Sequence record: NC_105617.1
Origin: a phage
Strand: one strand, 5' to 3'
Length of the DNA: 50,709 bases
The translations under genes were made by a program, and so were the position numbers. Of this stretch, positions 6,675 to 50,625 are shown piece after piece. Under the pieces are notes generated by a model. The model was not told the DNA's origin. It saw only the letters and a list, made by a program, of their open reading frames with translations, and searched no databases. How positions within the stretch are numbered: the first letter of the stretch is position 1; each line of letters starts with the position of its first letter.

Positions 6675-6696
6675 TTAACAAAAAGTGCTATTATTG
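6675..6696 (+). promoter_or_regulatory. Reverse-oriented TAGCAC box forming extended -10 (TGcTATTAT) upstream of major capsid gene
   Basis: ttaacaaaaagtgctattattg; box is the reverse complement of the early-cassette box. Confidence 0.4.
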
Positions 6697-20107: not shown

Positions 20108-20129
20108 GGGGCCGAGTGGCCCCTTTTTT
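20108..20129 (+). terminator. Intrinsic terminator after J-like gene
   Basis: ggggcc-gagt-ggcccc plus T6. Confidence 0.6.
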
Positions 20130-21102
20130 AATACATGTTCGGAAGAACTATCAACGGAGATTGAATTGCTATGTTCCTGTTAGGCATCACGAATTGCTGT
20201 CGAGAGTAGTTGCCAACAACCTTATTTTTAGCAACTCTTACCTTGTTTCCAGCCATTCTAATCCCGTTCATCCTTACGTGGTTATATCCTCCATTCCCTT
20301 CAATAAGTGCGCCGCAGTATGATAGCTGAATCAAGCTGTTTCCTATATCCTGATCCCCCGTTCCGATGTTGATTACGCGGTTGTAAACGAATGGCTTATT
20401 TACTGTAGAAAAAGTAACCTGACCTTGCTTGTTTGTCATTGTTATACCGTTACCGCCGCGAGGTGGAGTGTTATTGAATATAACTAAATCCATAGAAACA
20501 GAGGCTGTTACGTCATCTCTCCCCCCGTATGATGCATTCCTTACCGTGATGTTTGAACCGTCAAATCCAACGCTTACATTAGGATCGTCCCATCTGGCGA
20601 AAGGTATGCCGCTTACTGGCAACTTCATGTTTCCATTTACAGTTATACGTTTTGAGTATTGGCACGTCATTAATTTTGCAACGTTTGATATAGCTGTGAA
20701 ATCAGTAGAGTTTGCAACCAGTAAGCCCTCGTTTCTTGTTCCTACTGGCAATATTTCCATGACAGTACCAGCCCATTGAGGTAGCCCGTTATATGCACTC
20801 AATGCATCATCGCCTCTAATTATCACTCCGCTATTGCCATTCCTTGATACCGTCGTCGCATAAAACGGATCTGGTATAACAAGTGTCTGGTCGAACACCT
20901 CAATAACGTCAACAGGTTTTGTGAAAACAACAACAACCTGAGATCCCGGAGTTAATGGAGTATTTACTGTTAACGTCTTGTTTGATTGCGCCCTCTGATT
21001 AAAGTTAGCGCAGAATGACGGTGCGCGAAGCCCTGCCGTTATTTGCATCGCTGGTCGTCCGTCATTGTAGTTTACATATATCCCCTCACCCATAATTACC
21101 AC
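20128..21102 (-). CDS. Hypothetical beta-rich protein; candidate receptor-binding/host-range protein
   Basis: 324 aa, Gly/Asn/Thr/Val-rich; start overlaps the stop of the upstream Cor-like gene (same strand); function inferred from context only. Confidence 0.3.
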   Translation of the reverse strand: MVIMGEGIYVNYNDGRPAMQITAGLRAPSFCANFNQRAQSNKTLTVNTPLTPGSQVVVVFTKPVDVIEVFDQTLVIPDPFYATTVSRNGNSGVIIRGDDALSAYNGLPQWAGTVMEILPVGTRNEGLLVANSTDFTAISNVAKLMTCQYSKRITVNGNMKLPVSGIPFARWDDPNVSVGFDGSNITVRNASYGGRDDVTASVSMDLVIFNNTPPRGGNGITMTNKQGQVTFSTVNKPFVYNRVINIGTGDQDIGNSLIQLSYCGALIEGNGGYNHVRMNGIRMAGNKVRVAKNKVVGNYSRQQFVMPNRNIAIQSPLIVLPNMY

Positions 21103-21326
21103 TCCTTAGTTTTGACTGAGATCTTACCGCTAAAGTTGCCCTGATTGTCGTCTGATGAAAGGCCTTTGAATCGCATGTCAACTTCTCCAGCAGGCACTTT
21201 CTTACCGTCAATGAATCGCATCATGCAAGATCCGTAAGCGTAAGTAACACAGTCGCCATTCTTAAGATTCTGAGCGCAACCAGTCAGGATGAACGCAGCG
21301 GCGATAATGGTGATTAACTTTTTCAT
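21096..21326 (-). CDS. Cor-like outer-membrane lipoprotein (superinfection exclusion candidate)
   Basis: 76 aa; signal peptide with lipobox LTGC (MKKLITIIAAAFILTGC); own sigma70-like promoter upstream; size and position next to tail genes as for cor in T1/phi80-type phages. Confidence 0.5.
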   Translation of the reverse strand: MKKLITIIAAAFILTGCAQNLKNGDCVTYAYGSCMMRFIDGKKVPAGEVDMRFKGLSSDDNQGNFSGKISVKTKEW

Positions 21327-38107: not shown

Positions 38108-38151
38108 AATATACCTTACTCCCTATTTATTGTCTTTAGCAATTAGTGCTA
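38108..38151 (-). promoter_or_regulatory. Box-hairpin-(-10) cassette (minus)
   Basis: Minus strand tagcactaattgctaaag, hairpin gggagta/tactccc with TATATT in loop (spacer 23). Confidence 0.45.
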
Positions 38152-38295
38152 TCAGTACTCGGAAATTACTTTACACTCTTTGATTGTTCCACCTAGAACT
38201 ACTTTCTGCATCATTGCTTTTTGGTGGCTATCGTAAACGCGAACATTTTTTACGCTGTTAAATTTGCCAGTATAGAAAGTGTGAATATAAATCAT
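38152..38295 (-). CDS. Small hypothetical protein (micro-ORF)
   Basis: 47-aa ORF below track cutoff; ATGA overlap with upstream stop; its own stop TGA directly abuts a TAGCAC box. Confidence 0.25.
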   Translation of the reverse strand: MIYIHTFYTGKFNSVKNVRVYDSHQKAMMQKVVLGGTIKECKVISEY

Positions 38296-38612
38296 TTTTT
38301 ACCGTCCCATGTTTGATACGCCGTCACAAGGTTAATGCTATGGTCGAACTCGTCAATGCTAAGCGATCCGATTCGAACCAGTTCTTTATCATGCTTAATA
38401 TCTATCATCCGGCTATATGGATGACCTGGCACGTATTTGAACAGTCGCTTGCTGTCAGCAATATCAGCGTTGATTCCATAGAATCGGCCTACCGCCGCCT
38501 TCACGCGCTCCATGATGTTTTTTTCGTGGATTGCTGCCGCGTTATTCAATGCCGCGACCGTGCTTCCGTTAATCTTCGGTGATTTCGTTGTGATTTTATA
38601 AGTGTGGTTCAT
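38292..38612 (-). CDS. Hypothetical protein
   Basis: Start placed at ATG 38612 behind RBS GGGGG; track ORF extends further upstream without RBS. Confidence 0.45.
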   Translation of the reverse strand: MNHTYKITTKSPKINGSTVAALNNAAAIHEKNIMERVKAAVGRFYGINADIADSKRLFKYVPGHPYSRMIDIKHDKELVRIGSLSIDEFDHSINLVTAYQTWDGKK

Positions 38613-38628
38613 TATTCCCCCTAACCAG

Positions 38629-38829
38629 TCAGGATAGCTTTCTCGCTTCATCAATGATAACAGGTTCGAGACGCTCAAGTCGAACGCGGAACGTGTTCAT
38701 AAATCCTTCGTTATTCTTCAGTAGCTCGAATGCGTCTGTTGCCTCAATTGCGCTATTTCCCATGTAGGCAACTACTCTCTTTTGCGTCTTGCGTGAGATC
38801 GCAACCACGCGGTAGATATTATCACTCAT
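38629..38829 (-). CDS. Hypothetical protein
   Basis: Start at ATG 38829 behind strong RBS AAGGAGG; overlaps end of upstream gene. Confidence 0.45.
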   Translation of the reverse strand: MSDNIYRVVAISRKTQKRVVAYMGNSAIEATDAFELLKNNEGFMNTFRVRLERLEPVIIDEARKLS

Positions 38830-39193
38830 ACAATTCCTCCTTAACACGGTCCGCAATGCAGGAGTTTACAGAGATTGAGTAGTTAGCCACGCCCCATAAT
38901 GCAATATTGCCAAGCTCGGTACGCATTGATGGATTATTAAGCTGGATTATTGTCTCTCCAGTATCATTATCAATAAAGCGAGACACGCCTAAATGGTCCA
39001 CGGCGCGGGTTACTCGGTTAACACACTCCATTGCATCACTTACACCATAATAAGCGCTTAGAGCGGCTCTCACGGCATTCTCTTGCTTGTTGTAAATCTT
39101 TCGTGCAATGTTCTCGATCGCTACGTTCTCTTTCTCGTCAGTCTGGATTGCTGTGCTTGCTGAGAAGTCCAGGTCTACGAATTGTTTAAACAT
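38822..39193 (-). CDS. Hypothetical protein
   Basis: Start at ATG 39193 downstream of cassette 39225-39267; the longer track ORF would run through the promoter. Confidence 0.45.
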   Translation of the reverse strand: MFKQFVDLDFSASTAIQTDEKENVAIENIARKIYNKQENAVRAALSAYYGVSDAMECVNRVTRAVDHLGVSRFIDNDTGETIIQLNNPSMRTELGNIALWGVANYSISVNSCIADRVKEELYE

Positions 39194-39224
39194 GGTGATT
39201 GCCTCGTTTTCTGTAGATGGGATA

Positions 39225-39267
39225 ACTATACCAGCCATCCATGCCGTGCGTTTAGCAAAAAGTGCTA
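39225..39267 (-). promoter_or_regulatory. Box-hairpin-(-10) cassette (minus)
   Basis: Minus strand tagcactttttgctaaacg + 22 nt + TATAGT. Confidence 0.5.
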
Positions 39268-39270
39268 TCC

Positions 39271-39375
39271 TCAGCGACCAACTGCATCCATAATGATTGA
39301 GAACATGATCGCGAGCAAGCACCCGGAAAGAGCGAAAATCATTGAGGCTATTGCGTAATCAAAAAACTTTGTCAT
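39271..39375 (-). CDS. Small hydrophobic peptide (micro-ORF)
   Basis: 34-aa ORF MTKFFDYAIASMIFALSGCLLAIMFSIIMDAVGR with RBS GGGGG; stop followed by a TAGCAC box. Confidence 0.3.
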   Translation of the reverse strand: MTKFFDYAIASMIFALSGCLLAIMFSIIMDAVGR

Positions 39376-39377
39376 AA

Positions 39378-39608
39378 TTACCCCCTGAAACTATCAATAG
39401 TGTCATTAATGTATTTCACCTGAGCCTCGACGTCTGACGTGGCGATATACTGAAATGTATCGTAATCCTCCCGCAAGTCGACAAGCTCAATCTTTGTATG
39501 ATGCTCTTTCAAGCCACCCATGTGACCGTAATGCGTTCTGTAGACAATGAATCCCTCATCATTGGCGCGCTGAATTGCCTTCTTCAGCCCGGGGTGTTTA
39601 ATTGCCAT
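39378..39608 (-). CDS. Hypothetical protein
   Basis: 76 aa behind cassette with CCAATCAGGAG leader. Confidence 0.5.
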   Translation of the reverse strand: MAIKHPGLKKAIQRANDEGFIVYRTHYGHMGGLKEHHTKIELVDLREDYDTFQYIATSDVEAQVKYINDTIDSFRG

Positions 39609-39639
39609 CTGTTGATTCTCCTGATTGGTTGATGTGTTA

Positions 39640-39682
39640 ACTATACCCCGATCTCACTCGGGGCGTTTAGCAATTCGTGCTA
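39640..39682 (-). promoter_or_regulatory. Box-hairpin-(-10) cassette (minus)
   Basis: Minus strand TAA stop + tagcacgaattgctaaac + 22 nt + TATAGT; hairpin ccccga/tcgggg. Confidence 0.55.
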
Positions 39683-40018
39683 TTAATCGATATCAAACTC
39701 AGCGGCGTATGCTTTCTTGAAGCCAGCTTCGCGCATAGTGCGCTTGCTGATTTTGCGCGGGAATTTGTACTGGCTGTTAGGCTTGACCCACCAGAAGCAG
39801 GAAGTCTCGCGAACGATTTCATATTTACCGTAACGAGTGAAGGTATCGCGTTCCATATCAGGCTGATTAACACAGGTCAGGAATTTAGCTGCTTTGTCTT
39901 CAGTTTTGATTTCTTCCCAAACGAATGAGTCCATTCCGTTAACCTTGCAAGCAACCATGATGTACTCAACGCCGTTTTCGATTTTGATGATTTCGTTACC
40001 GCGATTTTCGTATTTCAT
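39683..40018 (-). CDS. Hypothetical protein
   Basis: Start at ATG 40018 with RBS AGGAG downstream of cassette 40057-40099. Confidence 0.45.
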   Translation of the reverse strand: MKYENRGNEIIKIENGVEYIMVACKVNGMDSFVWEEIKTEDKAAKFLTCVNQPDMERDTFTRYGKYEIVRETSCFWWVKPNSQYKFPRKISKRTMREAGFKKAYAAEFDID

Positions 40019-40056
40019 TTTCTTGCTCCTGATGTGTATCTCGTTTCGATGAGGTA

Positions 40057-40099
40057 ATAATGCCAGATTCCATTCCGGCAGTTTTAACAAAAAGTGCTA
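40057..40099 (-). promoter_or_regulatory. Box-hairpin-(-10) cassette (minus)
   Basis: Minus strand tagcactttttgttaaaac + 22 nt + CATTAT; box encodes C-terminus of MTase-like gene. Confidence 0.5.
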
Positions 40100-40788
40100 T
40101 TTGCGATCGCTTTAAAAAATCCCCTGGGCGACAGGGATCGTATCAACTTAGTTTTGGCAGATTTGCCGCCTAGCTTACTGTGCTGTGCAGAGTACCCGTC
40201 AGGCAGGCTTACAGGTTTTCTCTCGGGCATGACAAAATCGTCAGAGGTCCAAAGGCAAGTTTTCTTCGGGTAAGCATCGCGCGGCGCAATATACATCGGG
40301 AACCAGGGGTGTGAGTCATTCTCAGGAAGATAGCCGCCATACTCCCAGGGATTGAAGGAGTGATTTGGTTTTCTCCAGGCAGATGACAGGACGCTAACCG
40401 GATTCTCAATGATGTAAGTCACGCCCAGGCTATCGCCAATGTTCGCAGCAATCCGGGCGGTGGCAACAGCCTTCTCCTGGAATAACTGATCGCGTTCACG
40501 CTTTCTTGCGAAGTGAGCGGCACCACTAACAGCTAGGTCAGTGCACGGCGGGAAGGCCATAATGAAATCCGGCTTGCCATACACGCCAGCGATAGCATCA
40601 CGCTCAAACGCTGCGTCAATGAACACGTTCACATACTCAATGTTCGGATGCTCCACTCGGGCATTGTACTTTGCGTAATCTCCGTGATCGGCTCCGTCAA
40701 AGTTGAAGCACATTACCTTGTGACCTTGCTTAGCTAGCTCATGACCAGCAAGACCGGAACCGTCGAATAGGGACCAAATCAACTTCAT
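40084..40788 (-). CDS. DNA cytosine-C5 methyltransferase-like protein (compact, noncanonical)
   Basis: Motif I-like LFDGSGLAG, motif IV-like FPPCTDLAVSGA (PC dipeptide, T in place of Q), motif VI-like IIENPVS; only 234 aa; last five codons (NSTFC-stop) are encoded by a TAGCAC box. Confidence 0.5.
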   Translation of the reverse strand: MKLIWSLFDGSGLAGHELAKQGHKVMCFNFDGADHGDYAKYNARVEHPNIEYVNVFIDAAFERDAIAGVYGKPDFIMAFPPCTDLAVSGAAHFARKRERDQLFQEKAVATARIAANIGDSLGVTYIIENPVSVLSSAWRKPNHSFNPWEYGGYLPENDSHPWFPMYIAPRDAYPKKTCLWTSDDFVMPERKPVSLPDGYSAQHSKLGGKSAKTKLIRSLSPRGFFKAIANSTFC

Positions 40789-40928
40789 TTTGCGATCTCC
40801 TTTTTGTAGTGATTCAGCTTGTCGATGATTGACTTCGACTTGTTGGCTAGCGCCATGTCAGAGAACAGAGCTACGCGATAGATGTGTTCGTAACGATTAA
40901 TGGCTGCGTTGATGTTTGCAATATTCAT
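40785..40928 (-). CDS. Small hypothetical protein
   Basis: 47 aa from ATG 40928 behind CCAATCAGAGGA leader; first gene of the minus-strand block. Confidence 0.35.
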   Translation of the reverse strand: MNIANINAAINRYEHIYRVALFSDMALANKSKSIIDKLNHYKKEIAK

Positions 40929-41018
40929 GTCGATTCCTCTGATTGGTTGATGAGATGAATCATACCCGATCGGCAGTGCTGATGTGTTGCAAAAAATGCT
41001 ATTCCAATAGTTGCTCAT

Positions 41019-41610
41019 TATTCCACCATCAATGGAATATCTGGAATAATTGCGATCCCGATTGATCTCGAATGATGAAATGTGATTGTTGCATGGTGTG
41101 CAACTGTTGATGTGATTGTTTCTTAGAATGCAATGATTGTGAGAGGGGGGATTTAGTGTTACCCGGTTCGCCTGGTGGTCATCTCCATTTTTAGCAAAAC
41201 GTGCTATCGATTACAATTTAACTTGTCACGACTGTAATATTTGTCTAGAATCGCACTTGTGACAAAATTACGCACTGTGACGCATCACAATAGACATATA
41301 GATATATGTATATATATAATATATATAGTGTTTTTTTTATTTATATATATAGATAATTATATTGTAATAGTTGTGTATAGCCGTCTTACATTGTCTAGCG
41401 TACTGTTGGCATATTTCTATCTGCATGTTTATATATACAGTACTTTTTTGAGGGCTATATATTTCTATAGTGACTCTAGACAGCTAGACAAATATTACAC
41501 AGCTTAAAATTGGCTTGCAGTCGTTGACAGCTCTACGTCGCTCTGTCACAATGGCAATTGTTGACATGCTATGACACCATTTACACACCAATAGACAAAG
41601 AGGGCACATT
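41019..41610. repeat. AT-rich divergent control region with repeated TGTCAC/GTGACA and TTGTCTAG/CTAGACAA motifs (hub 2)
   Basis: Repeats tgtgattgtt x2, acttgtcac/acttgtgac, ttgtctag x2, ctagaca x2, atagaca x2; (TA)n tracts 41295-41360. Confidence 0.5.
41524..41552 (+). promoter_or_regulatory. Candidate sigma70 promoter for plus-strand early block
   Basis: TTGACA-17 bp-CACAAT about 58 nt upstream of ATG 41611. Confidence 0.4.
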
Positions 41611-42126
41611 ATGAGCAATACCAATCAGGAATTAAAAATCACCGACATGATTCGACTAACCTGCGATGCAATGTACCGCGACAAAGGCATGACCGAGTTC
41701 TCTTTCGTGGCTGATGATATGGCCCTAGAAGCAGCGCGATTCTACTTTCGTGGCCAGGAGGTAAGTGATAGCGATCTTGAATCTGCCGCTGCCGGATGGG
41801 TGGACCAGAACCAGGGGGAGGTAGAGAAGCGATTCAAATCTGCTTTCATCACTCCAATCATTACCCGACACTTTTGCAAGTATGGCAAGGTGGCAAAGGT
41901 GAAGGTAGGCCGGAATGACGCGGCAATCACGATGATAACCGTTATCGTTACCGACGAAGAGGTTCCGGTGAAGAAGCGCCGCAGCCGGAAAAAAGTTAGC
42001 CTGGCCGACTGCCTTGATTCGTTTGACGTTGATGTTAGCAAGCTATCCGATAGCGAGTTAATGGTTCGTGATGTGAATGAGATCGTGCGCCAGATGAAAG
42101 CACATATTGAAAAGTGTGGACTGTAA
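41611..42126 (+). CDS. Hypothetical protein
   Basis: 171 aa, first gene of the plus-strand early block, RBS AGAGGG; basic patch KKRRSRKK. Confidence 0.5.
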   Translation: MSNTNQELKITDMIRLTCDAMYRDKGMTEFSFVADDMALEAARFYFRGQEVSDSDLESAAAGWVDQNQGEVEKRFKSAFITPIITRHFCKYGKVAKVKVGRNDAAITMITVIVTDEEVPVKKRRSRKKVSLADCLDSFDVDVSKLSDSELMVRDVNEIVRQMKAHIEKCGL

Positions 42127-42138
42127 GGAGAGATGAGT

Positions 42139-42378
42139 ATGAGCAAGATTAAGCATGACGCCCTGAAAGGTATCTTGATGCGACTAAACCCAGGTGAAGC
42201 ATTCCAGCTTAACCCCGAGACGTTTGGATTCAATGGTGATTATCGTACAACCTTCGAATTTGTCCGGTATGTAAAGAAAGAGTTTGGATTCGAAGTTATT
42301 CACGCAGGTCTTATCAATGGCATCCAGACATTCATCTTTAAGCCAAATGAGATTCGTTGCTTCACGCTGATGAAATAG
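42139..42378 (+). CDS. Hypothetical protein
   Basis: ATG 42139 preferred over 42133 for RBS spacing; stop TAG lies in a TAGCAC box. Confidence 0.45.
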   Translation: MSKIKHDALKGILMRLNPGEAFQLNPETFGFNGDYRTTFEFVRYVKKEFGFEVIHAGLINGIQTFIFKPNEIRCFTLMK

Positions 42379-42424
42379 CACTTTTTGTTAAAACCGGAGC
42401 GGGATAACCTGGTATAGTTATCCC
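42376..42424 (+). promoter_or_regulatory. Box-hairpin-(-10) cassette
   Basis: TAG stop = box start; ttgtta + 22 nt + TATAGT; hairpin gggataa/ttatccc. Confidence 0.55.
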
Positions 42425-42449
42425 ATCGACAACGAATGAGGAAACGAAG

Positions 42450-42644
42450 ATGGAAACGCAAATTGACGTAGTGGTTGTTCAGCGTGACTCCACCCATGAA
42501 AAGGGGCTATTCAAGAAAGGAACTGAAATCACGATAGACCTTGAGGATATGGTTGCATATCACTCGGGTCTTACCTGGAACGTGGTGCGCGTAGGCAGCG
42601 ACTACAAACTCAAAGGCTTTAACACTTACTTTGCGGAGGTTTAA
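42450..42644 (+). CDS. Hypothetical protein
   Basis: 64 aa behind cassette 42376-42424. Confidence 0.45.
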   Translation: METQIDVVVVQRDSTHEKGLFKKGTEITIDLEDMVAYHSGLTWNVVRVGSDYKLKGFNTYFAEV

Positions 42645-42646
42645 TT

Positions 42647-43117
42647 ATGACAACCATTACCGTATTTCTTGCTAAAGATGAGCTTGATGGCGAAATGTCA
42701 TTCTTCGCGTTTGAGCACAAGACCGGATCGCACTGGCATGCGTACACTCACTACACGGTTATCTCAATCGAGGCGTTCGAAGGTGATTCACTCACTGATA
42801 AGCTGAGTTATTTTGTTGAAGCGGTTAAGGCTAGCGGCGGCTGTGAGTGGAAAGAAGATCACGAAGTTATGCGAATGCTTGAGATGGTCAATCCGGTTCG
42901 ACTTGAGTCTTTCGAGCTTGATTCTTACGTGAGCATTAAGGTGAGAAAGCCGGGTGAGTTGTTGCCAGGGATGCGTGTGCTGACTGGTTACTCAGGTCGT
43001 AAAGTGTGGCGAACCATATCGAAGATTCGACAGCGCTCAGAAACATGCTACAGCGTGTTCTTTGATGACGGCTGGAATGAGGTTGCTGGTAGTAACGTGA
43101 AGTATCTTACCAAATAG
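42647..43117 (+). CDS. Hypothetical protein
   Basis: 156 aa; stop TAG inside a TAGCAC box. Confidence 0.45.
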   Translation: MTTITVFLAKDELDGEMSFFAFEHKTGSHWHAYTHYTVISIEAFEGDSLTDKLSYFVEAVKASGGCEWKEDHEVMRMLEMVNPVRLESFELDSYVSIKVRKPGELLPGMRVLTGYSGRKVWRTISKIRQRSETCYSVFFDDGWNEVAGSNVKYLTK

Positions 43118-43163
43118 CACGAATTGCTAAAACCGGATCGGGGTATCTTGCTATAGTTACCCC
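43115..43163 (+). promoter_or_regulatory. Box-hairpin-(-10) cassette
   Basis: TAG stop = box start; ttgcta + 22 nt + TGcTATAGT; hairpin ggggta/tacccc. Confidence 0.55.
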
Positions 43164-43196
43164 ATCAAAACGACACACCAATCAGAGGATTTCACC

Positions 43197-43460
43197 ATGT
43201 CAATCGTCAAGAATAGAAACGCAATTGAAGCTACTCGCCACAACAAGCAACACGCGATTTTCATTGCTCGCTACTGCTCAAGCATCAATGGTGGCTTGCA
43301 GTATCGCCGCTATGCAGTGATTGAGCTTTCCCCATACATTTACAAAGAGTATCGAGAGGAGAATGGCAAGTGGATTGAGATTGAGGGCGTAACGAGCTTC
43401 TTGATCTGGAATGGTGAATTTCAGGGGTACGACGATATCAGCACTTTAATTGAGGAATAA
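43197..43460 (+). CDS. Hypothetical protein
   Basis: 87 aa behind cassette 43115-43163 with CCAATCAGAGGA leader. Confidence 0.45.
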   Translation: MSIVKNRNAIEATRHNKQHAIFIARYCSSINGGLQYRRYAVIELSPYIYKEYREENGKWIEIEGVTSFLIWNGEFQGYDDISTLIEE

Positions 43461-43466
43461 ATAATC

Positions 43467-43694
43467 ATGCCACGTTACAGCAACCTAACCAAACTAATCC
43501 GCGTCAACGGGCACATGATCCCGGCTAAATCTACTCACTGCGCGAAAGGCGCAAAGCACGGATTATATTTCAAGTGGCGCGGTCAATGGAACTTCACGGC
43601 GGTGAGCAATTTTTACATGCGCGTTCCTGGTGATGATCCGCAATCGGTAGTAGAAAACTCAATCGGCGACAACAAGATCGAGGTACTAAAATGA
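43467..43694 (+). CDS. Hypothetical protein
   Basis: 75 aa, basic. Confidence 0.45.
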   Translation: MPRYSNLTKLIRVNGHMIPAKSTHCAKGAKHGLYFKWRGQWNFTAVSNFYMRVPGDDPQSVVENSIGDNKIEVLK

Positions 43695-43801
43695 ACTTCA
43701 ATACAATAGCTCTATGGTCTGCCGTCTGGTTCTTCTGCATGGGTCACGTTATGGTCGGCATCGTGGTAATGCTTCTCCTGTGTGCGGGGGCGTTCGAATG
43801 A
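43691..43801 (+). CDS. Small transmembrane peptide (micro-ORF)
   Basis: 36 aa MNFNTIALWSAVWFFCMGHVMVGIVVMLLLCAGAFE; ATGA overlap with both neighbours. Confidence 0.3.
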   Translation: MNFNTIALWSAVWFFCMGHVMVGIVVMLLLCAGAFE

Positions 43802-43971
43802 TGCGAATATTGATTTGCATGATGGCGGCGGTCGCCCTGGCTATCCTGGTAGTGTCAGGATGCGGAGAGGTCAGAGATAGCTGTCATAAGACCGGGAACC
43901 AGGTTACTACGCTTGTGATGGTTGGCAACGTTTTGCTACCAATCACATCAAATGAGATCACTTGCGAATAG
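43798..43971 (+). CDS. Small lipoprotein (putative)
   Basis: 57 aa from ATG 43798; signal peptide MMRILICMMAAVALAILVVSGC with lipobox VSGC. Confidence 0.4.
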   Translation: MMRILICMMAAVALAILVVSGCGEVRDSCHKTGNQVTTLVMVGNVLLPITSNEITCE

Positions 43972-43980
43972 GATTTAAAA

Positions 43981-44172
43981 ATGGCTGATTTTATGCACCA
44001 AATGATTGCAGTATTCAAAGGTAGCGAAGATGAGGAAGTAAAAGAGTGCTTTACTGTCGACAAGCATTATAACGCTTCGCTAACCAGCTTCGGTAACATC
44101 TCATTGCTTGATGATAATGGCGATCCCTGGGTATTCGATGAAGATACGGATTGCTTCGAAATTAAAGAATAG
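43981..44172 (+). CDS. Small acidic protein
   Basis: 63 aa rich in D/E; stop TAG inside a TAGCAC box. Confidence 0.45.
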   Translation: MADFMHQMIAVFKGSEDEEVKECFTVDKHYNASLTSFGNISLLDDNGDPWVFDEDTDCFEIKE

Positions 44173-44218
44173 CACTTTTTGTTAAAACGCGATCATGTGG
44201 TTGCGATATAGTAACCAC
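44170..44218 (+). promoter_or_regulatory. Box-hairpin-(-10) cassette
   Basis: TAG stop = box start; ttgtta + 22 nt + TATAGT; hairpin gtggtt/aaccac. Confidence 0.55.
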
Positions 44219-44243
44219 ATCGACAACGAATGAGGACGAGAAC

Positions 44244-44732
44244 ATGAAAATTAAATTACTGTGCACTGGCGGTTACAAAGGCTTTACTCGCGACCTGGAA
44301 TCAGACCCGATTATCGTTGACGCTGTGAAGTGCGATGATAGCACGGGCGGCTACCGCGTCAAGGTTGACGACCTGGTAAAAGCTGGCGTGTACGATCTGG
44401 ATTACGGCCTATCGGTTAGTCCAGTATTTGGCCCGGCTGACTTCAACGAAAATGACGGAACGATGTTCTTTTTTGAATGGGAAGTCCAGGCAAACATCAA
44501 GCCGCGCAAGGTTCGACTTCTCAACAATGGCGGGTATCCTATGCGCCCTGGTTATGAGAATCGCACGTTCCCGGTTATTGTTGACTTTGAGGAAATTACC
44601 AGCACCCTGGCTTACGTTGGAAATGAACAACTCAATGCTGTAGGTTTTTGGGGTGGGATGAATAAAGAGTCTCTTTGCTTCTTCCATCGCGACACCGAAC
44701 CGTTCTCTATTGAGTGCGAGTTAGTTTACTGA
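44244..44732 (+). CDS. Hypothetical protein
   Basis: 162 aa behind cassette 44170-44218. Confidence 0.5.
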   Translation: MKIKLLCTGGYKGFTRDLESDPIIVDAVKCDDSTGGYRVKVDDLVKAGVYDLDYGLSVSPVFGPADFNENDGTMFFFEWEVQANIKPRKVRLLNNGGYPMRPGYENRTFPVIVDFEEITSTLAYVGNEQLNAVGFWGGMNKESLCFFHRDTEPFSIECELVY

Positions 44733-44780
44733 GCACGAATTGTTAAAAGGGGATTCGTCCTGACTGGTACAATCCACATA
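44730..44780 (+). promoter_or_regulatory. Box-hairpin-(-10) cassette
   Basis: tGAgcacgaattgttaaaag + 22 nt + TGgTACAAT. Confidence 0.5.
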
Positions 44781-44803
44781 TCAACCACTAAGAGGAAATC
44801 ATT

Positions 44804-45310
44804 ATGTTGAAATTAGAAGACGTAAAATTCCCGATTAAATTTATCAGCCTGGGTTGCGGTGAAATTACATTCACCAGTGAAGATAAAGGCAAGTGGGCAA
44901 CTGATGAGGTGTCTCAGCTTAAGTTGGATTGGTTTATCAATAGGCACAATGAAGTAAATCCTGAAAACTCAGCCAAGAAGGATTACCATTACATTATTAG
45001 TGGTAGTCAGGATGTGTACGAAAAGTATGATGGTTGGAAAACTGATCGATCCATCTTCCACCCCGCAAAGCCAGAAATTAAACCGATGTTACAATGCACT
45101 CAGATCGAGAACATGCCATTGAGCGCTACGATAAAGGGCGTCCAACTTGATAGCGAATCCTGGGCCGAGATTACCGCAACACCTAAAACTATTGAGGTGC
45201 ATGATGATGTAGTGATTCTCCTATTGCATTACGGCAGCTTTAAGCACAAAACGGTATCAGGTGAAATAAGCATTAAGCGCGGAACACTTGTACGCTATGA
45301 GGTGAAATAA
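44804..45310 (+). CDS. Hypothetical protein
   Basis: 168 aa behind cassette 44730-44780. Confidence 0.5.
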   Translation: MLKLEDVKFPIKFISLGCGEITFTSEDKGKWATDEVSQLKLDWFINRHNEVNPENSAKKDYHYIISGSQDVYEKYDGWKTDRSIFHPAKPEIKPMLQCTQIENMPLSATIKGVQLDSESWAEITATPKTIEVHDDVVILLLHYGSFKHKTVSGEISIKRGTLVRYEVK

Positions 45311-45459
45311 TGGCTTCATGGGTTTTGATTATCTTAATGAGTACCGGGCCAGATCACGTATACATGGAAAGCCAACAATCATGCAACAAGGCTCGGGAGG
45401 TGATTTCAGAGAACAGGCCGTTCGGATACGAAGTAAAAACGATGTGCGTTAAACGATAG
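45310..45459 (+). CDS. Small hypothetical protein (micro-ORF)
   Basis: 49 aa with hydrophobic N-terminus (MASWVLIILMSTG); TAATG overlap upstream; stop TAG is the TAG of a TAGCAC box. Confidence 0.3.
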   Translation: MASWVLIILMSTGPDHVYMESQQSCNKAREVISENRPFGYEVKTMCVKR

Positions 45460-45505
45460 CACGAATTGATAAACCTTCCGCAAGGCCATTTGATATAGTG
45501 GCCTT
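45457..45505 (+). promoter_or_regulatory. Box-hairpin-(-10) cassette
   Basis: TAG stop of micro-ORF = box start; ttgata + 22 nt + TGaTATAGT; hairpin aaggcca/tggcctt. Confidence 0.55.
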
Positions 45506-45539
45506 ATTGAAGCAAGGCAACCAATCAGAGGAATCAGCT

Positions 45540-45746
45540 ATGGCTACACGACTAACTCAGTGGCAGATTTACGACAAGGCCTCACGCCTACGTGAATCAC
45601 TTCGCGGACTGACGCAGAATGACAGAATGGAGATTATCGGGCACGCATTGCACGAACTCACGCCGCCGGACGTAACCTATCATTCATGCGGCAATAAATT
45701 CTGGAACGTGACATTCGAGGTAAAGAAAGATGAGCAAAACTCATAA
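45540..45746 (+). CDS. Hypothetical protein
   Basis: 68 aa from ATG 45540 behind CCAATCAGAGGA leader. Confidence 0.45.
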   Translation: MATRLTQWQIYDKASRLRESLRGLTQNDRMEIIGHALHELTPPDVTYHSCGNKFWNVTFEVKKDEQNS

Positions 45747-46017
45747 GTTAAAAATCGCCCCGATACATTTCATTGGTGTAATGAACGGAACCAAAACGGC
45801 AGAGTTCCGCATCAATGACCGCAACTTCCAGGTTGGTGATATCCTTGAGCTACGCGAGTTCGATCGTGACGAGTTTACCGGGTGGGAAGTTCACGCAAGG
45901 GTATCCGATGTTACCGATGTGACGCCATACATTAATCGCGGGTATGACGATCAAGGATGCGACTTCACGCAATACGTGATGTTATCAATCAAACCTTACA
46001 GGAAGGTTAGACCATGA
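45730..46017 (+). CDS. ASCH/PUA-like domain protein (putative)
   Basis: 95 aa; N-terminal pattern KTHKLKIAPIHFIGVMNGTKTAEFRINDRNFQVGDIL resembles ASCH-type domains; weak. Confidence 0.35.
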   Translation: MSKTHKLKIAPIHFIGVMNGTKTAEFRINDRNFQVGDILELREFDRDEFTGWEVHARVSDVTDVTPYINRGYDDQGCDFTQYVMLSIKPYRKVRP

Positions 46018-46670
46018 AATTTGAATGCGTATCAAGTAGCGGATCGGGCTTTAAGTGGGGAAAAATCTACGAAGGCGCTCGAGTCAATGACGACAGCTTC
46101 GTTGTCGTGGATGAGAACGGCAGTAACGTTAACATCACCCGTCGTAACGAGTACCAAGAAATTTTCCTGCCGTATGGCGGTAGTTCAAAATATATCTTCC
46201 ATCGAATCGTGGATGGTGTTAAATTTAGAGACGTAATCGAAGCAATCAACCAACTGCATAATAAAGAGGTAAAATTTATGAAATTTGAATGTATCAGCGA
46301 TAACACCAAAAAATTTACTGTTGGAAAAATCTACGACGTTCCTACTGAGCACGCAAAGCACACTGTAGCGCTTACTGACGACACTGGCCGTCACCGCATC
46401 GCTACCGTAACGCATAATGGCGAAGGTCTGCGATGGAATAGCGGCGGCACTAAGTTTGCAACGTTCGGCAAGAAGAAGCAGAAATTTAATACCAGTAGAA
46501 TCAAGGGCGGTTTCCGCATCGAACAGGGTAAGATTCAAAGCGTTAAGCCAATCGAAGTTGATGGTAAAGTCAAGCCTAAGCTGACCAACAAGGACATTGA
46601 TAATCTGGCGAACCTGGCTATGGCTACCGTGCTTCTTATTTCTCTTATCGTGCTGTTTTTCGTAGTTTAA
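46014..46670 (+). CDS. Tail-anchored membrane protein with tandemly duplicated N-terminal domain
   Basis: Two about 88-aa repeats each starting MKFEC(V/I)S...GKIY(E/D), second with its own SD AAGAGG; C-terminal TM LANLAMATVLLISLIVLFFVV. Confidence 0.5.
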   Translation: MKFECVSSSGSGFKWGKIYEGARVNDDSFVVVDENGSNVNITRRNEYQEIFLPYGGSSKYIFHRIVDGVKFRDVIEAINQLHNKEVKFMKFECISDNTKKFTVGKIYDVPTEHAKHTVALTDDTGRHRIATVTHNGEGLRWNSGGTKFATFGKKKQKFNTSRIKGGFRIEQGKIQSVKPIEVDGKVKPKLTNKDIDNLANLAMATVLLISLIVLFFVV

Positions 46671-46677
46671 CTTAAAG

Positions 46678-46709
46678 TGGGAATCGTTCCTGAGCGGTTC
46701 CCTATTTTT
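46678..46709 (+). terminator. Terminator-like hairpin
   Basis: gggaatcg/cggttccc stem (one G-T pair) followed by T-rich tract. Confidence 0.35.
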
Positions 46710-46720
46710 ATGAGGTGAAT

Positions 46721-46843
46721 ATGAATAGCTTTATGCCTGACTTTAAGAACTGGAAAAACGAACCTCCATCATTTCAGGAGTTGCTATTCTGCCTCCTGGT
46801 CCTGACATTATCTCTTAAGGGTGTTTTATGGCTACTATCATGA
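46721..46843 (+). CDS. Small hypothetical protein (micro-ORF)
   Basis: 40-aa ORF with RBS GAGGTG and hydrophobic C-terminal half; overlaps next gene start. Confidence 0.25.
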   Translation: MNSFMPDFKNWKNEPPSFQELLFCLLVLTLSLKGVLWLLS

Positions 46844-47046
46844 CAGCAGAAGATGCAGCACGTGAAGCAGTGGAAGGAATGCGACCAAATACCTCCAGAA
46901 TCGCACACTACTACAAATTTGACGTATCGGCAGTGCAATTGGTCCATGAAATTTTAAGGCTCCCACAAGTCGATTCAGCGCGTGTGGTGGCGTGCTTAAA
47001 AAATTATTTTTGCATCACTATTAAAACGAATAGCACGAATTGCTAA
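46828..47046 (+). CDS. Hypothetical protein
   Basis: 72 aa; last five codons (NSTNC-stop) are encoded by a TAGCAC box. Confidence 0.45.
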   Translation: MATIMTAEDAAREAVEGMRPNTSRIAHYYKFDVSAVQLVHEILRLPQVDSARVVACLKNYFCITIKTNSTNC

Positions 47047-47079
47047 AACCTATCAAGGGGAATGCGCTATGATTCCCCT
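47031..47079 (+). promoter_or_regulatory. Box-hairpin-(-10) cassette
   Basis: Box encodes last codons NSTNC-TAA of upstream gene; ttgcta + 22 nt + TATGAT; hairpin ggggaat/attcccc. Confidence 0.5.
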
Positions 47080-47103
47080 ACACCAACGAACGAGGGAATA
47101 CTC

Positions 47104-47550
47104 ATGAAACACTTGATTTGCATTGATACACCTAACAATGAACACACTCTGCACGGCATTGGGATGTTCAAAGGCCACTACATGACAGCAAGCATTTATG
47201 ATGCGCATCGCGACGATGGCGATCTGATGATTACGTCAAAAGACGTTAATCCGTACATCATGCAGAATCTTGGCAACAATGAATATATGGCTTACGGATG
47301 CAACGCGGTGTACAAGAATGTCAAGATCCGTAAGCGTATTGTTCGCGCATTTAAGAAAATCGCCATGAAGCACTGGAAGATGAGCAAGAAGGAGGCTGGG
47401 CGCTGGGCGCGTAACGTTGCTGATTCATACTTCTATCGTAACGGTGAGTCGTGCCACTTCCTGATCGATGAAATGATGGAAAATTATAGCGGCACATTCC
47501 GCCAAAGTGATTTTGACGCTTGGGCTTACTACGAGGTAGATTGCTGGTAA
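47104..47550 (+). CDS. Hypothetical protein
   Basis: Start at ATG 47104 with RBS GAGGG, downstream of cassette 47031-47079. Confidence 0.45.
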   Translation: MKHLICIDTPNNEHTLHGIGMFKGHYMTASIYDAHRDDGDLMITSKDVNPYIMQNLGNNEYMAYGCNAVYKNVKIRKRIVRAFKKIAMKHWKMSKKEAGRWARNVADSYFYRNGESCHFLIDEMMENYSGTFRQSDFDAWAYYEVDCW

Positions 47551-47597
47551 TAGCACGAATTGCTAAAACTTACTCAAGGGCATTTGGTAGAATGCCC
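47551..47597 (+). promoter_or_regulatory. Box-hairpin-(-10) cassette
   Basis: ttgcta + 22 nt + TGgTAGAAT; hairpin gggcat/atgccc; CCAATCAGAGGA leader downstream. Confidence 0.55.
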
Positions 47598-47633
47598 TTC
47601 GTTGAGTTAAACAACCAATCAGAGGAATAAATC

Positions 47634-48167
47634 ATGGATAAAATTACAATTTGGGGTCAAACTATCAACCTGTTTCTCGGTCCGCGCCGCGTCGCAATCT
47701 TTGACTTTGACGGAACACTGAGTGACGGATCAAAGCGCCTTCACCTGTTGCCAAAAAAGGATTTGCACTTGACTGAAAGCTGGTCTGAGTTTAATCGAGC
47801 CGCAATATTTGATAACCCCATCCAGAGCACGATTGAGGTGATGAACTCATTACGCCAAGCTGGGGTGTATGTAATCATTTTAACCGGGCGAAGCGATGAG
47901 GTGCGTTACGCATCTGAGTTATGGCTTAAGCATCACGGTGCGCGATATGATTACTTAGTCATGCGACCGCACACAGACAACCGGAAAGACACAGTGATGA
48001 AAGAGGAAGCGGTGCGAGCGATCGGTATTGAAAACATCCTCGCGGCTTGGGATGATTCACCGCAAATTATTCCATTATTCCGGTCGCTTGGAATAACCAC
48101 ATATGCTGTAGTTGACTATGGCGATAACGTTCACGATCATTTAAAATCGCACGGGGTAGAGAAATGA
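47634..48167 (+). CDS. HAD-superfamily phosphatase (polynucleotide 3'-phosphatase / nucleotidase-like)
   Basis: HAD motif I FDFDGTL, motif II ILTGRSD, DNRKDTVMKEE segment, motif IV AWDDSPQ; resembles the phosphatase domain of T4 polynucleotide kinase as recalled. Confidence 0.6.
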   Translation: MDKITIWGQTINLFLGPRRVAIFDFDGTLSDGSKRLHLLPKKDLHLTESWSEFNRAAIFDNPIQSTIEVMNSLRQAGVYVIILTGRSDEVRYASELWLKHHGARYDYLVMRPHTDNRKDTVMKEEAVRAIGIENILAAWDDSPQIIPLFRSLGITTYAVVDYGDNVHDHLKSHGVEK

Positions 48168-48274
48168 ACCTATACGAATTTATTGCAGCACATCCGGTAT
48201 TGACGGTTATCATCCTGCTAATCATCAATCACACTATCATAAATGTAGCAAAATTATTTTTAGGGAGATACTGA
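48164..48274 (+). CDS. Small transmembrane peptide (micro-ORF)
   Basis: 36-aa ORF MNLYEFIAAHPVLTVIILLIINHTIINVAKLFLGRY; ATGA overlap with phosphatase stop. Confidence 0.3.
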   Translation: MNLYEFIAAHPVLTVIILLIINHTIINVAKLFLGRY

Positions 48275-48275
48275 C

Positions 48276-48848
48276 ATGAAAACAGCTATCGTTTTAAACG
48301 GCGCGCCTGGAGCGGGAAAAGACACTATCGGATGCATCCTGGCTGACACTTACGATCACGTAGCCTTGCGCAGCTTCAAAGCGCCAATGTTTGAGATTGC
48401 CCGGGCAATCCTGGGTGAAGCTAACTACGAGTATTTCATGTTCTTGTATGAGGACCGTCGATATAAAGAAGAGCCAGCATCCATCCTGAACGGTAAAAGC
48501 CCACGCCAGTTTATGATCTGGATTAGCGAGGAAGTCATCAAGCCGCAGTTCGGAAATCGCTTCTTCGGTATGCGAGCGGAAAGCAAGGTGAAAGAGTCAC
48601 ACTCCCTTTCTGTATTTACTGACGGTGGATTCAAAGATGAGATCTTGCAAATGATTGAAGGCGATATCCAGGTCAAGCTATGCCGCATACATCGCAACGG
48701 CTGCAACTTCGATAACGACAGTCGAGATTATATCTACCTGGATGATATGATCGGTGTCAACGGTTATCAGGAATGTGACTTCTTCTCTGTCGAAGGTCAT
48801 CCAGAAATTACCGCTCAGCACATAGCCGCTACGTTCATCAACAAATAG
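48276..48848 (+). CDS. P-loop nucleoside-monophosphate kinase-like protein (dNMP kinase candidate)
   Basis: Walker A GAPGAGKDT at N-terminus; LNGKSP segment; overall resemblance to phage dNMP kinases as recalled. Confidence 0.5.
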   Translation: MKTAIVLNGAPGAGKDTIGCILADTYDHVALRSFKAPMFEIARAILGEANYEYFMFLYEDRRYKEEPASILNGKSPRQFMIWISEEVIKPQFGNRFFGMRAESKVKESHSLSVFTDGGFKDEILQMIEGDIQVKLCRIHRNGCNFDNDSRDYIYLDDMIGVNGYQECDFFSVEGHPEITAQHIAATFINK

Positions 48849-48895
48849 CACTAATTGCTAAAACGTCGGTGGGGTGATTTGATATAGTCACCTCA
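48846..48895 (+). promoter_or_regulatory. Box-hairpin-(-10) cassette
   Basis: TAG stop = box start; ttgcta + 22 nt + TGaTATAGT; hairpin ggtga/tcacc. Confidence 0.55.
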
Positions 48896-50068: not shown

Positions 50069-50230
50069 ATGCAAAAAACTAAAGACGAATCAGTCAAAAT
50101 TGAAATTAAAGTAACTCGCAACGGTGAAACCACTCGTTATAAAAAACGATTAAATCCTGGAGAGGCTGTTATTGGTCGCATTGCTGGCGTTATGGTTAAG
50201 GCGCAGGAAGATGAAGCGATTCAAAGTTAA
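50069..50230 (+). CDS. Small hypothetical protein
   Basis: 53-aa ORF below track cutoff with RBS AGAGGG; start codon sits in a small hairpin (ttgcat/atgcaa). Confidence 0.3.
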   Translation: MQKTKDESVKIEIKVTRNGETTRYKKRLNPGEAVIGRIAGVMVKAQEDEAIQS

Positions 50231-50397: not shown

Positions 50398-50625
50398 ATG
50401 GAAATTTTTTTATGGATTATCGCTGGTATCGTTATTTTTGGTGCTGGTTTATTTTCTGGCTTCGTTCTTGTAGCGTTCGCGATGGCTATGGAAGCAAAAG
50501 ATAAAACTGGCGTGTGGCTGACCTACTCACCTAAGAAGGACCAGTGGGAAATGATTGGTGATCTTGCTCACTGCTATTCTAAAGCACGGCTACACCATAA
50601 AGGCATTAAACGACGATTATCGTGA
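50398..50625 (+). CDS. Small membrane protein
   Basis: 75 aa with N-terminal TM helix (IFLWIIAGIVIFGAGLFSGFVLVAFAMAM); followed by terminator. Confidence 0.45.
   Translation: MEIFLWIIAGIVIFGAGLFSGFVLVAFAMAMEAKDKTGVWLTYSPKKDQWEMIGDLAHCYSKARLHHKGIKRRLS

Follow-up and report, generated by a model that had tools for sequence, protein, structure and literature searches.

T1-like phages are both model and nuisance phages of Escherichia coli, and about one third of their genome is without an assigned function. Blocks of small genes of unknown role are standard in phage genomes, and the 2004 T1 record (AY216660.1; PMID 14972552) lists several very short genes, including Orf73, Orf72, Orf69 and Orf67. 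In the T4-type phages RB49 and phi1, PeSL (promoter-early stem-loop) cassettes, each a repeated unit of promoter and hairpin, lie between small non-essential genes, with indels and replacements located at the repeats (PMC2839356). Here we examine seven micro-open reading frames (micro-ORFs) in sequence record NC_105617.1, the complete 50,709-bp genome (hereafter the window) of Escherichia phage vB_EcoS_SA12KD, a T1-like siphophage (Drexlerviridae, Tunavirus). The micro-ORFs, labeled A to G, lie at 43691-43801 (A, 36 aa), 43798-43971 (B, 57 aa), 48164-48274 (C, 36 aa), 45310-45459 (E, 49 aa) and 46721-46843 (G, 36-40 aa) on the plus strand, and at 39271-39375 (D, 34 aa) and 38152-38295 (F, 47 aa) on the minus strand. 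The sequence evidence indicates that the seven frames are genuine, separately translated genes packed against their neighbors, with transcription and translation being what we infer, and that they are accessory genes in the divergent small-gene blocks that fill the right third of a T1-like genome. The genes were already public as hypothetical proteins; our analysis adds the separation of four or five membrane-directed products from two soluble ones, the separation of family-wide from lineage-specific genes, and a structural idea for B.

Comparison with T1 shows that its ORFs 73, 72, 69, 67 and 4 (CPTT1_005, CPTT1_006, CPTT1_009, CPTT1_011 and CPTT1_076) correspond to A, B, E, G and F, respectively, at approximately 86-95% identity and with the same order and overlaps, whereas T1 has no counterpart of C or D. 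Among closer relatives, the genomes of LeonhardEuler, Sfin-1 to Sfin-6, XJA18 and IME18 match the region of the micro-ORFs at 88-92% identity over 80-92% of its length, and the gene order of LeonhardEuler is collinear with that of SA12KD starting at the small terminase gene. The region consists of two divergent blocks of small genes, one running leftward from approximately 40.8 to 37.1 kb and the other rightward from 41.6 kb to the end of the genome, separated by an AT-rich gap that contains three of the four best sigma-70 promoter matches between 37 and 50.7 kb. These matches form a near-consensus cluster (41223-41552, plus strand; 10-11 of 12 positions) at the head of the rightward block, and are matches to the consensus only.

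The coordinates, lengths and translations of all seven micro-ORFs, as listed in an initial annotation made from the letters of the sequence, were reproduced exactly, and its observations on ribosome binding sites and overlapping start and stop codons hold up. A GAGG- or GGGG-type Shine-Dalgarno sequence is positioned 5-11 nt 5' of each of the seven starts. The stop codon of the upstream gene overlaps the start codon as ATGA for A, C (at the PNK gene) and F and as TAATG for E, and the A-B pair is bordered by ATGA on both sides as described, the ATG of A overlapping the upstream stop and the stop of A overlapping the ATG of B. The 4-nt overlap of C with the PNK stop is matched at its other end by a spacing of only 1 nt to the next ATG, and D starts 2 nt past the upstream stop behind a GGGGG Shine-Dalgarno sequence. 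G begins 50 nt past the preceding gene and, as its T1 homologue does, shares 16 nt with the next gene; it lies just 3' of a terminator-like hairpin (46679-46702, plus strand; a 10-bp stem followed by a T-rich tail), and the T1 and SA30RD records mark a rho-independent terminator at the equivalent site. The candidates fill gaps between larger ORFs, on the locally transcribed strand, and their stop/start overlaps are seen again in close relatives and for several distant homologues of A. Such overlapping or abutting stop and start codons would allow translational coupling.

Conservation of the reading frames in related phages, the check that the initial annotation had proposed, argues strongly for coding. 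Each peptide was mapped onto 72 related loci retrieved around the PNK gene, and close relatives provided 9-15 distinct nucleotide versions per gene. Variable columns at codon positions 1/2/3 numbered 8/4/22 for A, 10/8/34 for B, 7/2/17 for C, 11/7/26 for E, 2/4/20 for F and 9/5/18 for G, and the corresponding ratios of nonsynonymous to synonymous polymorphism (pN/pS) were 0.11, 0.14, 0.12, 0.09, 0.08 and, over the full length of G, 0.40. Third codon positions carry most of the substitutions, which marks clear purifying selection in the frame of each of these six genes, and their other two forward frames gave pN/pS values of 1.0-6.2 (1.2 and 3.6 in the case of A). As a control, every ORF of 20-60 codons between 37 and 50.7 kb with enough relatives was scored in the same way; the median pN/pS of these 134 small ORFs was 1.2, and the candidates fall in the lowest tail. 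The first four codons of G raise its value, as they are non-homologous in most relatives, which begin at a second ATG (46733); in the core, most of the variation falls on third positions. The ORF of G is uninterrupted in 17 close relatives. For each frame, 9-15 distinct relative sequences preserve it intact (13 of 13 for A), the exception being a premature stop in E in one of them (L010). In a single further relative (L016; IMGVR_UViG_2974611450) frameshifts or truncations seem to affect the homologues of B, C, E and G alike, a pattern that points to errors of sequencing or assembly and not to loss of the genes. Judged on these patterns, the six micro-ORFs other than D are very likely real coding genes, and D is likely one as well.

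The distribution of the genes separates A, E and F, which by their sequence homologues are old and family-wide, from B, C, D and G, which are lineage-specific. A, B and C each occur in 54-55 phage records, and B, C and G are essentially confined to Tunavirus of Escherichia and Shigella; C, D and B are each absent from some close relatives, and B-like and E-like genes occur at other positions in other Drexlerviridae. Full-length matches to PHROG families were obtained for A (phrog_25570), B (phrog_8628), E (phrog_5579) and F (phrog_3955) with E-values of 3e-27 to 7e-25, all of them families of unknown function, and the same scan matched C, D and G to no family. The micro-ORFs had been described as unannotated, which is correct only in part. 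All seven exact sequences are present at NCBI as "hypothetical protein"; A, C and G, however, were apparently omitted from the SA12KD record, as indicated by its locus-tag numbering and by accession lists, and likewise from the sister record SA30RD. In the SA12KD record B, D and E are SA12KD_63, SA12KD_52 and SA12KD_67, respectively. Many records omit C, those of LeonhardEuler and Sfin-4 annotate six of the seven, and that of ULIM2 annotates D.

The description of all the products as hydrophobic peptides applies to A, B, C, D and G but not to E and F. Among the 121 ORFs of 25-60 aa between 37 and 50.7 kb, A, G, D and C take the first four places in hydrophobicity, and a membrane location of A, B, C, D and G is, from their sequences, quite likely. 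A, C and G are probably single-pass inner-membrane microproteins of 34-40 residues, and D probably likewise. A is essentially all transmembrane (TM) helix over its 36 residues and has no basic residue, and G is predicted to be a C-terminally anchored membrane peptide; the homologues of both carry the note "single transmembrane domain" in the T1 record. Directly 5' of G, 46014-46670 (plus strand) encodes a 218-aa protein with a C-terminal TM anchor. Homologues of A of 35-36 aa with approximately 40% identity are found in distant Drexlerviridae, where several keep the 4-nt overlap with the upstream stop and where the flanking genes are other TM micro-ORFs and not B. For example, at two distant loci (L056 7628-7951 and L060 1100-1423) the A homologue is preceded by a 37-aa TM micro-ORF and followed by an overlapping 38-aa TM micro-ORF, and a two-ORF version consisting of the A homologue and the overlapping 38-aa TM micro-ORF occurs at four more (L052, L057, L062 and L073). 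The C-terminus of the 37-aa micro-ORF (ADAIGR) resembles that of D (MDAVGR), a likeness in sequence that hints that D belongs to a wider family.

D itself is a rare accessory gene, missing from most relatives and represented by homologues in ECO104 4-5-2 (100% identity, in a fragmentary record), in ULIM2 (76%; of equal length and annotated) and in Salmonella phage STSR3 (53%; E-value 3e-5), with conservation of the reading frame. Its product may be either a TM helix or a very short lipoprotein. The motif LSGC is found at residues 16-19 with K3 before it, and all three homologues retain it as L[SA]GC; no more than 15 residues, mostly hydrophobic, come after it, and the Cys may sit mid-helix in a TM segment of residues 8-29.

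C lies, as originally described, between a phosphatase and a kinase gene, namely the PNK/phosphatase gene before it and a deoxynucleotide kinase homologue after it. Its 55 phage records are all Tunavirus of Escherichia or Shigella, with 90-100% identity, and it is found neither in T1 nor in most other Drexlerviridae. The PNK/deoxynucleotide kinase junction (48164-48275 in the window, with equivalents in loci L014-L074) is an insertion hotspot: in many Drexlerviridae the two flanking genes overlap directly by ATGA, and the same junction holds an HNH endonuclease gene in T1, C in the SA12KD clade, and E-like, B-like or other small membrane-protein genes elsewhere. We also considered that C might be a remnant of the T1 HNH endonuclease insertion, and rejected this; the two show no similarity before the kinase start.

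B has the features of a lipoprotein precursor, as the initial annotation had proposed. Its N-terminus reads MMRILICMMAAVALAILVVSG followed by Cys22, with R3, a 16-residue hydrophobic region and, at residues 19-22, the lipobox VSGC, which fits the pattern [LVI][ASTVI][GAS]C, and the protein is probably exported and lipidated on Cys22. The lipobox Cys is present in 10 of the 11 sequences of the alignment of B homologues (A1), and two distant homologues keep it (P0024 with LAGC and P0025 with VTGC). UniRef names two B homologues "Lipoprotein", and the T1 record carries no lipoprotein flag on its homologue. Two further cysteines, C29 and C56, are invariant in the alignment. An AlphaFold2 model of B consists of a helix (residues 2-19), a disordered linker after this signal helix, and two strands (29-42 and 45-56) that form a hairpin with C29 and C56 at its open end; the predicted local distance difference test score (pLDDT) is 65 overall and 82 in the hairpin. 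On this model, B is presumably a membrane-tethered, Cys-bracketed hairpin on the periplasmic side. Among distant homologues the Cys-hairpin core recurs either behind a lipobox (P0024 and P0025) or behind a plain TM anchor (P0020, L049 and L064), indicating that the conserved trait is membrane tethering and that the lipid anchor is not strictly conserved.

A search with the B profile against 1.84 billion representative sequences yielded six matches, one of which, of 725 aa, is a repeat artefact. P0024 (L079-L082, metagenome contigs from JGI of up to 91 kb) belongs to an extended run of small, closely overlapping genes on an unrelated, larger phage-like contig, with a HAD_SAK_2 phosphatase gene a few kilobases downstream. 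The neighbor of P0025 is a zinc-ribbon-like ORF and not a TM peptide, and both contexts are uninformative. In one close relative (L012), A is kept while B and the next gene are absent, and a cassette of the kind described below follows directly after A. The occurrence of A without B in this relative, together with the other partners of distant A homologues, indicates that the A-B pair is not an obligate unit.

The arrangement of A and B, a gene for a TM protein followed by an overlapping gene for a lipoprotein, is also that of two-component spanins (Rz/Rz1). In such pairs the i-spanin extends to the o-spanin through a long coiled-coil domain in the periplasm. A lacks any periplasmic domain that could extend to B, the two genes are separable, and mature B is modeled as a beta-hairpin. 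Moreover, in the collinear genome of LeonhardEuler the holin, endolysin and u-spanin genes are found at 33.6-34.7 kb, which places A and B approximately 9 kb away from a lysis cassette with its own u-spanin, in a different transcription block. A spanin function of the pair was rejected for these reasons.

E and F are small soluble proteins and not membrane peptides, as suggested by the structural model for E and by sequence for F. The grand average of hydropathy (GRAVY) of E is -0.24, and its AlphaFold2 model (pLDDT 89) is a globular beta-beta-alpha-beta fold in which the hydrophobic N-terminus forms a core strand (residues 4-10). A Foldseek search of the PDB with this model gave a best E-value of 0.45; T7 Gp2 ranked third, which was not significant and was not used. 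Homologues of E of 50-55 aa with two conserved Cys occur across Drexlerviridae. F has a GRAVY of -0.15 and a maximum 19-residue hydropathy of 0.66 and is thus hydrophilic throughout; homologues were found in 40 of 75 sources (74 fetched loci plus the window).

Similarity searches gave no lead on the function of the seven products, and spoke neither for nor against the suggestion in the initial annotation that such peptides serve in host takeover or superinfection exclusion. Scans of all seven against Pfam, NCBIfam and PADLOC gave nothing above noise, the weak NCBIfam matches for B covering the signal peptide only, and a sequence search of the PDB with the B profile returned nothing relevant, its best match (E-value 0.07) being an archaellum protein. 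We found no paper in the literature on these seven proteins. Ten neighboring genes were scanned against PHROG; nine matched families of unknown function only and one (45730-46017) matched an RNA-binding-protein family, so that the context is uninformative on the roles of the micro-ORFs.

Two kinds of known system offer analogies. Like B, the receptor-blocking exclusion proteins Cor (T1 and phi80) and Llp (T5) are small phage lipoproteins with internal cysteines. B has no sequence relationship to them: an hhalign comparison with the tail-adjacent lipoprotein of the window gave a probability of 6% with only the lipobox aligned, and the PDB library, in which the Llp-FhuA entry 8A60 (cited in PMC13164509) is expected to be present, contained no relevant match to B. 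In addition, Cor-type genes adjoin the tail and receptor-binding genes, whereas B, at 43.8 kb, is approximately 22 kb from them and has only 36 residues in its mature form. For the membrane peptides, A, C, D and G resemble the bacterial single-pass regulatory microproteins AcrZ, MgrB, SgrT and MgtS, as well as the phage inner-membrane exclusion proteins HK97 gp15 and T4 Imm, in size, in their single TM helix and in the lack of an enzymatic domain, although HK97 gp15 and T4 Imm are larger and the family scans revealed no sequence similarity. These proteins act by binding a larger membrane protein, which serves here as a working model only. By analogy, helix-helix contacts would allow A, C, D and G to bind proteins of the host envelope and modulate them, and the approximately 28-residue hairpin of B (Cys29-Cys56) would dock from the periplasmic side on a periplasmic or outer-membrane partner. 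The envelope of the infected cell could be conditioned in this way, one candidate effect being that other phages are excluded. An envelope-modulating or exclusion role is a tentative proposal and by itself rather doubtful; the explanation as a whole, in which the seven are real accessory genes and the membrane-directed products among them would act on the host envelope, seems to us somewhat likelier to be right than wrong.

Several observations weigh against this explanation. Three homologues of B depart from the lipobox, through Cys to Phe (L011), Val at -1 (L006) and the absence of any Cys (P0020), and another homologue (L008) has Asp at +2, which would imply retention in the inner membrane; it may therefore be that neither lipidation nor outer-membrane sorting is essential. 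The model of B is of moderate confidence and derives from a shallow alignment. Neither homology nor context points to a specific function, and the usual position of exclusion factors in this family, judged by analogy, is occupied in the window by another gene: the tail-tip J-like gene ends at 20.1 kb and is followed by a 324-aa ORF (20128-21102, minus strand), a putative receptor-binding gene, beside which lies the gene for a 76-aa lipoprotein (21096-21326, minus strand; lipobox LTGC) that is unrelated to B. D, with only three homologues, is the weakest coding case. The pN/pS measure is also blind to strand, and antisense frames that share third positions score low too; in the control set, for example, antisense ORFs at 43613-43675 (minus), 47292-47387 (minus) and 40094-40273 (plus) scored 0.10-0.16, a caution for any conservation-based call of micro-ORFs. 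The assignment of strand consequently rests on ORF integrity, Shine-Dalgarno sequences, tight junctions and gap context. Finally, transcription, translation, coupling, lipidation and disulfide formation are all features that we infer from sequence, and "early" timing of the micro-ORFs is deduced from genome position only.

The micro-ORFs are embedded in a series of repeats. A palindromic 15-bp box, TAGCAC-N5-TTGCTA, occurs in 20 copies in the window compared to 0.15 expected, starting at 6676, 10441, 26129, 27670, 30180, 31203, 34956, 37118, 38137, 39253, 39668, 40085, 41192, 42376, 43115, 44170, 45457, 47031, 47551 and 48846. The orientation of the box matches local transcription in the region of the micro-ORFs and at most other copies, and the box often begins with the stop codon of the preceding gene. 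In approximately 15 copies a TATAGT-like -10 hexamer (5-of-6) is found at a fixed distance of 22 nt 3' of the box, often with TG two bases before the hexamer, and in most copies a hairpin of variable sequence (-9 to -25 kcal/mol) overlaps the hexamer and is followed by the Shine-Dalgarno sequence of the next gene; five copies have weaker hairpins (-3.8 to -6 kcal/mol). The hairpins are annotated as rho-independent terminators in SA30RD, though they have no U-tract. With the box centered near -42 from the predicted start, the geometry resembles that of an activator-dependent promoter. The PeSL cassettes of RB49 and phi1 are the closest described analogue of this putative cassette, as both are repeated promoter-plus-hairpin units between small non-essential genes at which indels and replacements occur, but they differ in sequence from the predicted SA12KD unit with its 15-bp box, fixed 22-nt spacing and hairpin over the TATAGT hexamer.

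The cassettes split the region into modules of one to five genes, within which each micro-ORF would be read. A and B share one module, opened by the box at 43115-43129 and closed by that at 44170-44184 (both plus strand), and the PNK gene, C and the deoxynucleotide kinase gene share another, between the boxes at 47551-47565 and 48846-48860 (plus strand). D, E and F each come last in their respective modules: a box follows directly after F (38137-38151, minus strand) and after D (39253-39267, minus strand), and the first three bases of the box at 45457-45471 (plus strand) are the stop codon of E. Indels between relatives are located at the cassettes. For example, D and its downstream cassette, including the box, form an exact insertion relative to XJA18, and an extra ORF of ULIM2 lies between two boxes. 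The cassettes thus provide a map of putative transcription modules and indel points for engineering or dissecting the region. A bolder extension of the envelope proposal, and a long shot, is that B represents a new class of phage envelope effector, a minimal and presumably disulfide-closed hairpin tethered by lipid or TM helix depending on lineage, that would inhibit a host envelope machine or a phage receptor by beta-strand augmentation, with A, C, D and G as shuffled intramembrane inhibitors of host inner-membrane proteins and the whole set moved by a promoter cassette that is activator-dependent and also serves as a site of recombination.

Other explanations were weighed against the same evidence. 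The size and composition of the membrane peptides resemble those of small pore-forming or depolarizing peptides, A lacks any basic residue, and T1 infection is reported to alter membrane permeability early, all of which would fit membrane-damaging or lysis-timing factors, small depolarizing peptides akin to type I toxins or (anti)holins that would shut off the host or tune the triggering of a pinholin and would not bind specific host proteins. However, none of them lies in the lysis cassette, which is complete (holin, endolysin and u-spanin) in the collinear relative and from which all seven are approximately 3-14 kb away, and each family conserves specific motifs beyond hydrophobicity; we consider this explanation unlikely. 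The accessory, patchy occurrence of the genes at shuffled positions, as is often seen for anti-defense genes, and their location in the kind of small-gene block, of unknown function, that typifies such loci would also be expected of counter-defense or host-range factors directed at membrane-associated host immunity and not at other phages. The improbability of such a role is suggested by the lack of similarity to any known defense-related family in the PADLOC scan, by the KanT1 paper, in which DefenseFinder found no anti-defense systems in that Tunavirus genome, and by the wide conservation of A, E and F, which are not strain-specific. The exact coincidence of cassette boundaries with the gain or loss of D plus its cassette and of the extra ULIM2 ORF, and the position of C at a junction holding a homing endonuclease in T1, could mean that the genes are passengers of mobile regulatory cassettes with little benefit to the phage, but the strong purifying selection on C (0.12) and others shows that the products matter to the carrier, leaving this a small chance.

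It is very improbable that the frames are chance ORFs in spacers, untranslated and hydrophobic from base composition. They are very short, a 19-residue hydropathy of at least 1.6 is attained by chance in 21 of the region's 121 small ORFs, and A, C, F and G are left unannotated in several records (e.g., SA30RD and some RefSeq re-annotations). Against this, five of the frames have own-frame values of 0.08-0.14 with variation dominated by third positions, the frames are intact apart from the single stop in E, homologues of A, E and F at 30-45% identity with equal length and tight junctions occur in distant subfamilies, and the E model folds confidently. Finally, the idea that A is spurious and that B is instead an 85-aa protein starting at an in-frame ATG (43714), from which the frame is open through 43971, can be dismissed almost entirely, as over the A region the B frame has a pN/pS above 1 compared to 0.11 in the A frame, the extension varies freely among relatives and is cut by stops in two of them (L009 and L013), distant homologues exist for A and none for the extension, and a lipoprotein signal must be N-terminal.

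Besides the seven genes that we favor as coding, the rightward block contains further ORFs for small or membrane proteins. A 75-aa ORF at 50398-50625 (plus strand) has an N-terminal TM segment, and a conserved 53-aa soluble ORF at 50069-50230 (plus strand), missing from the list in the initial annotation, has a pN/pS of 0.13 and is intact in 15 of 15 relatives.

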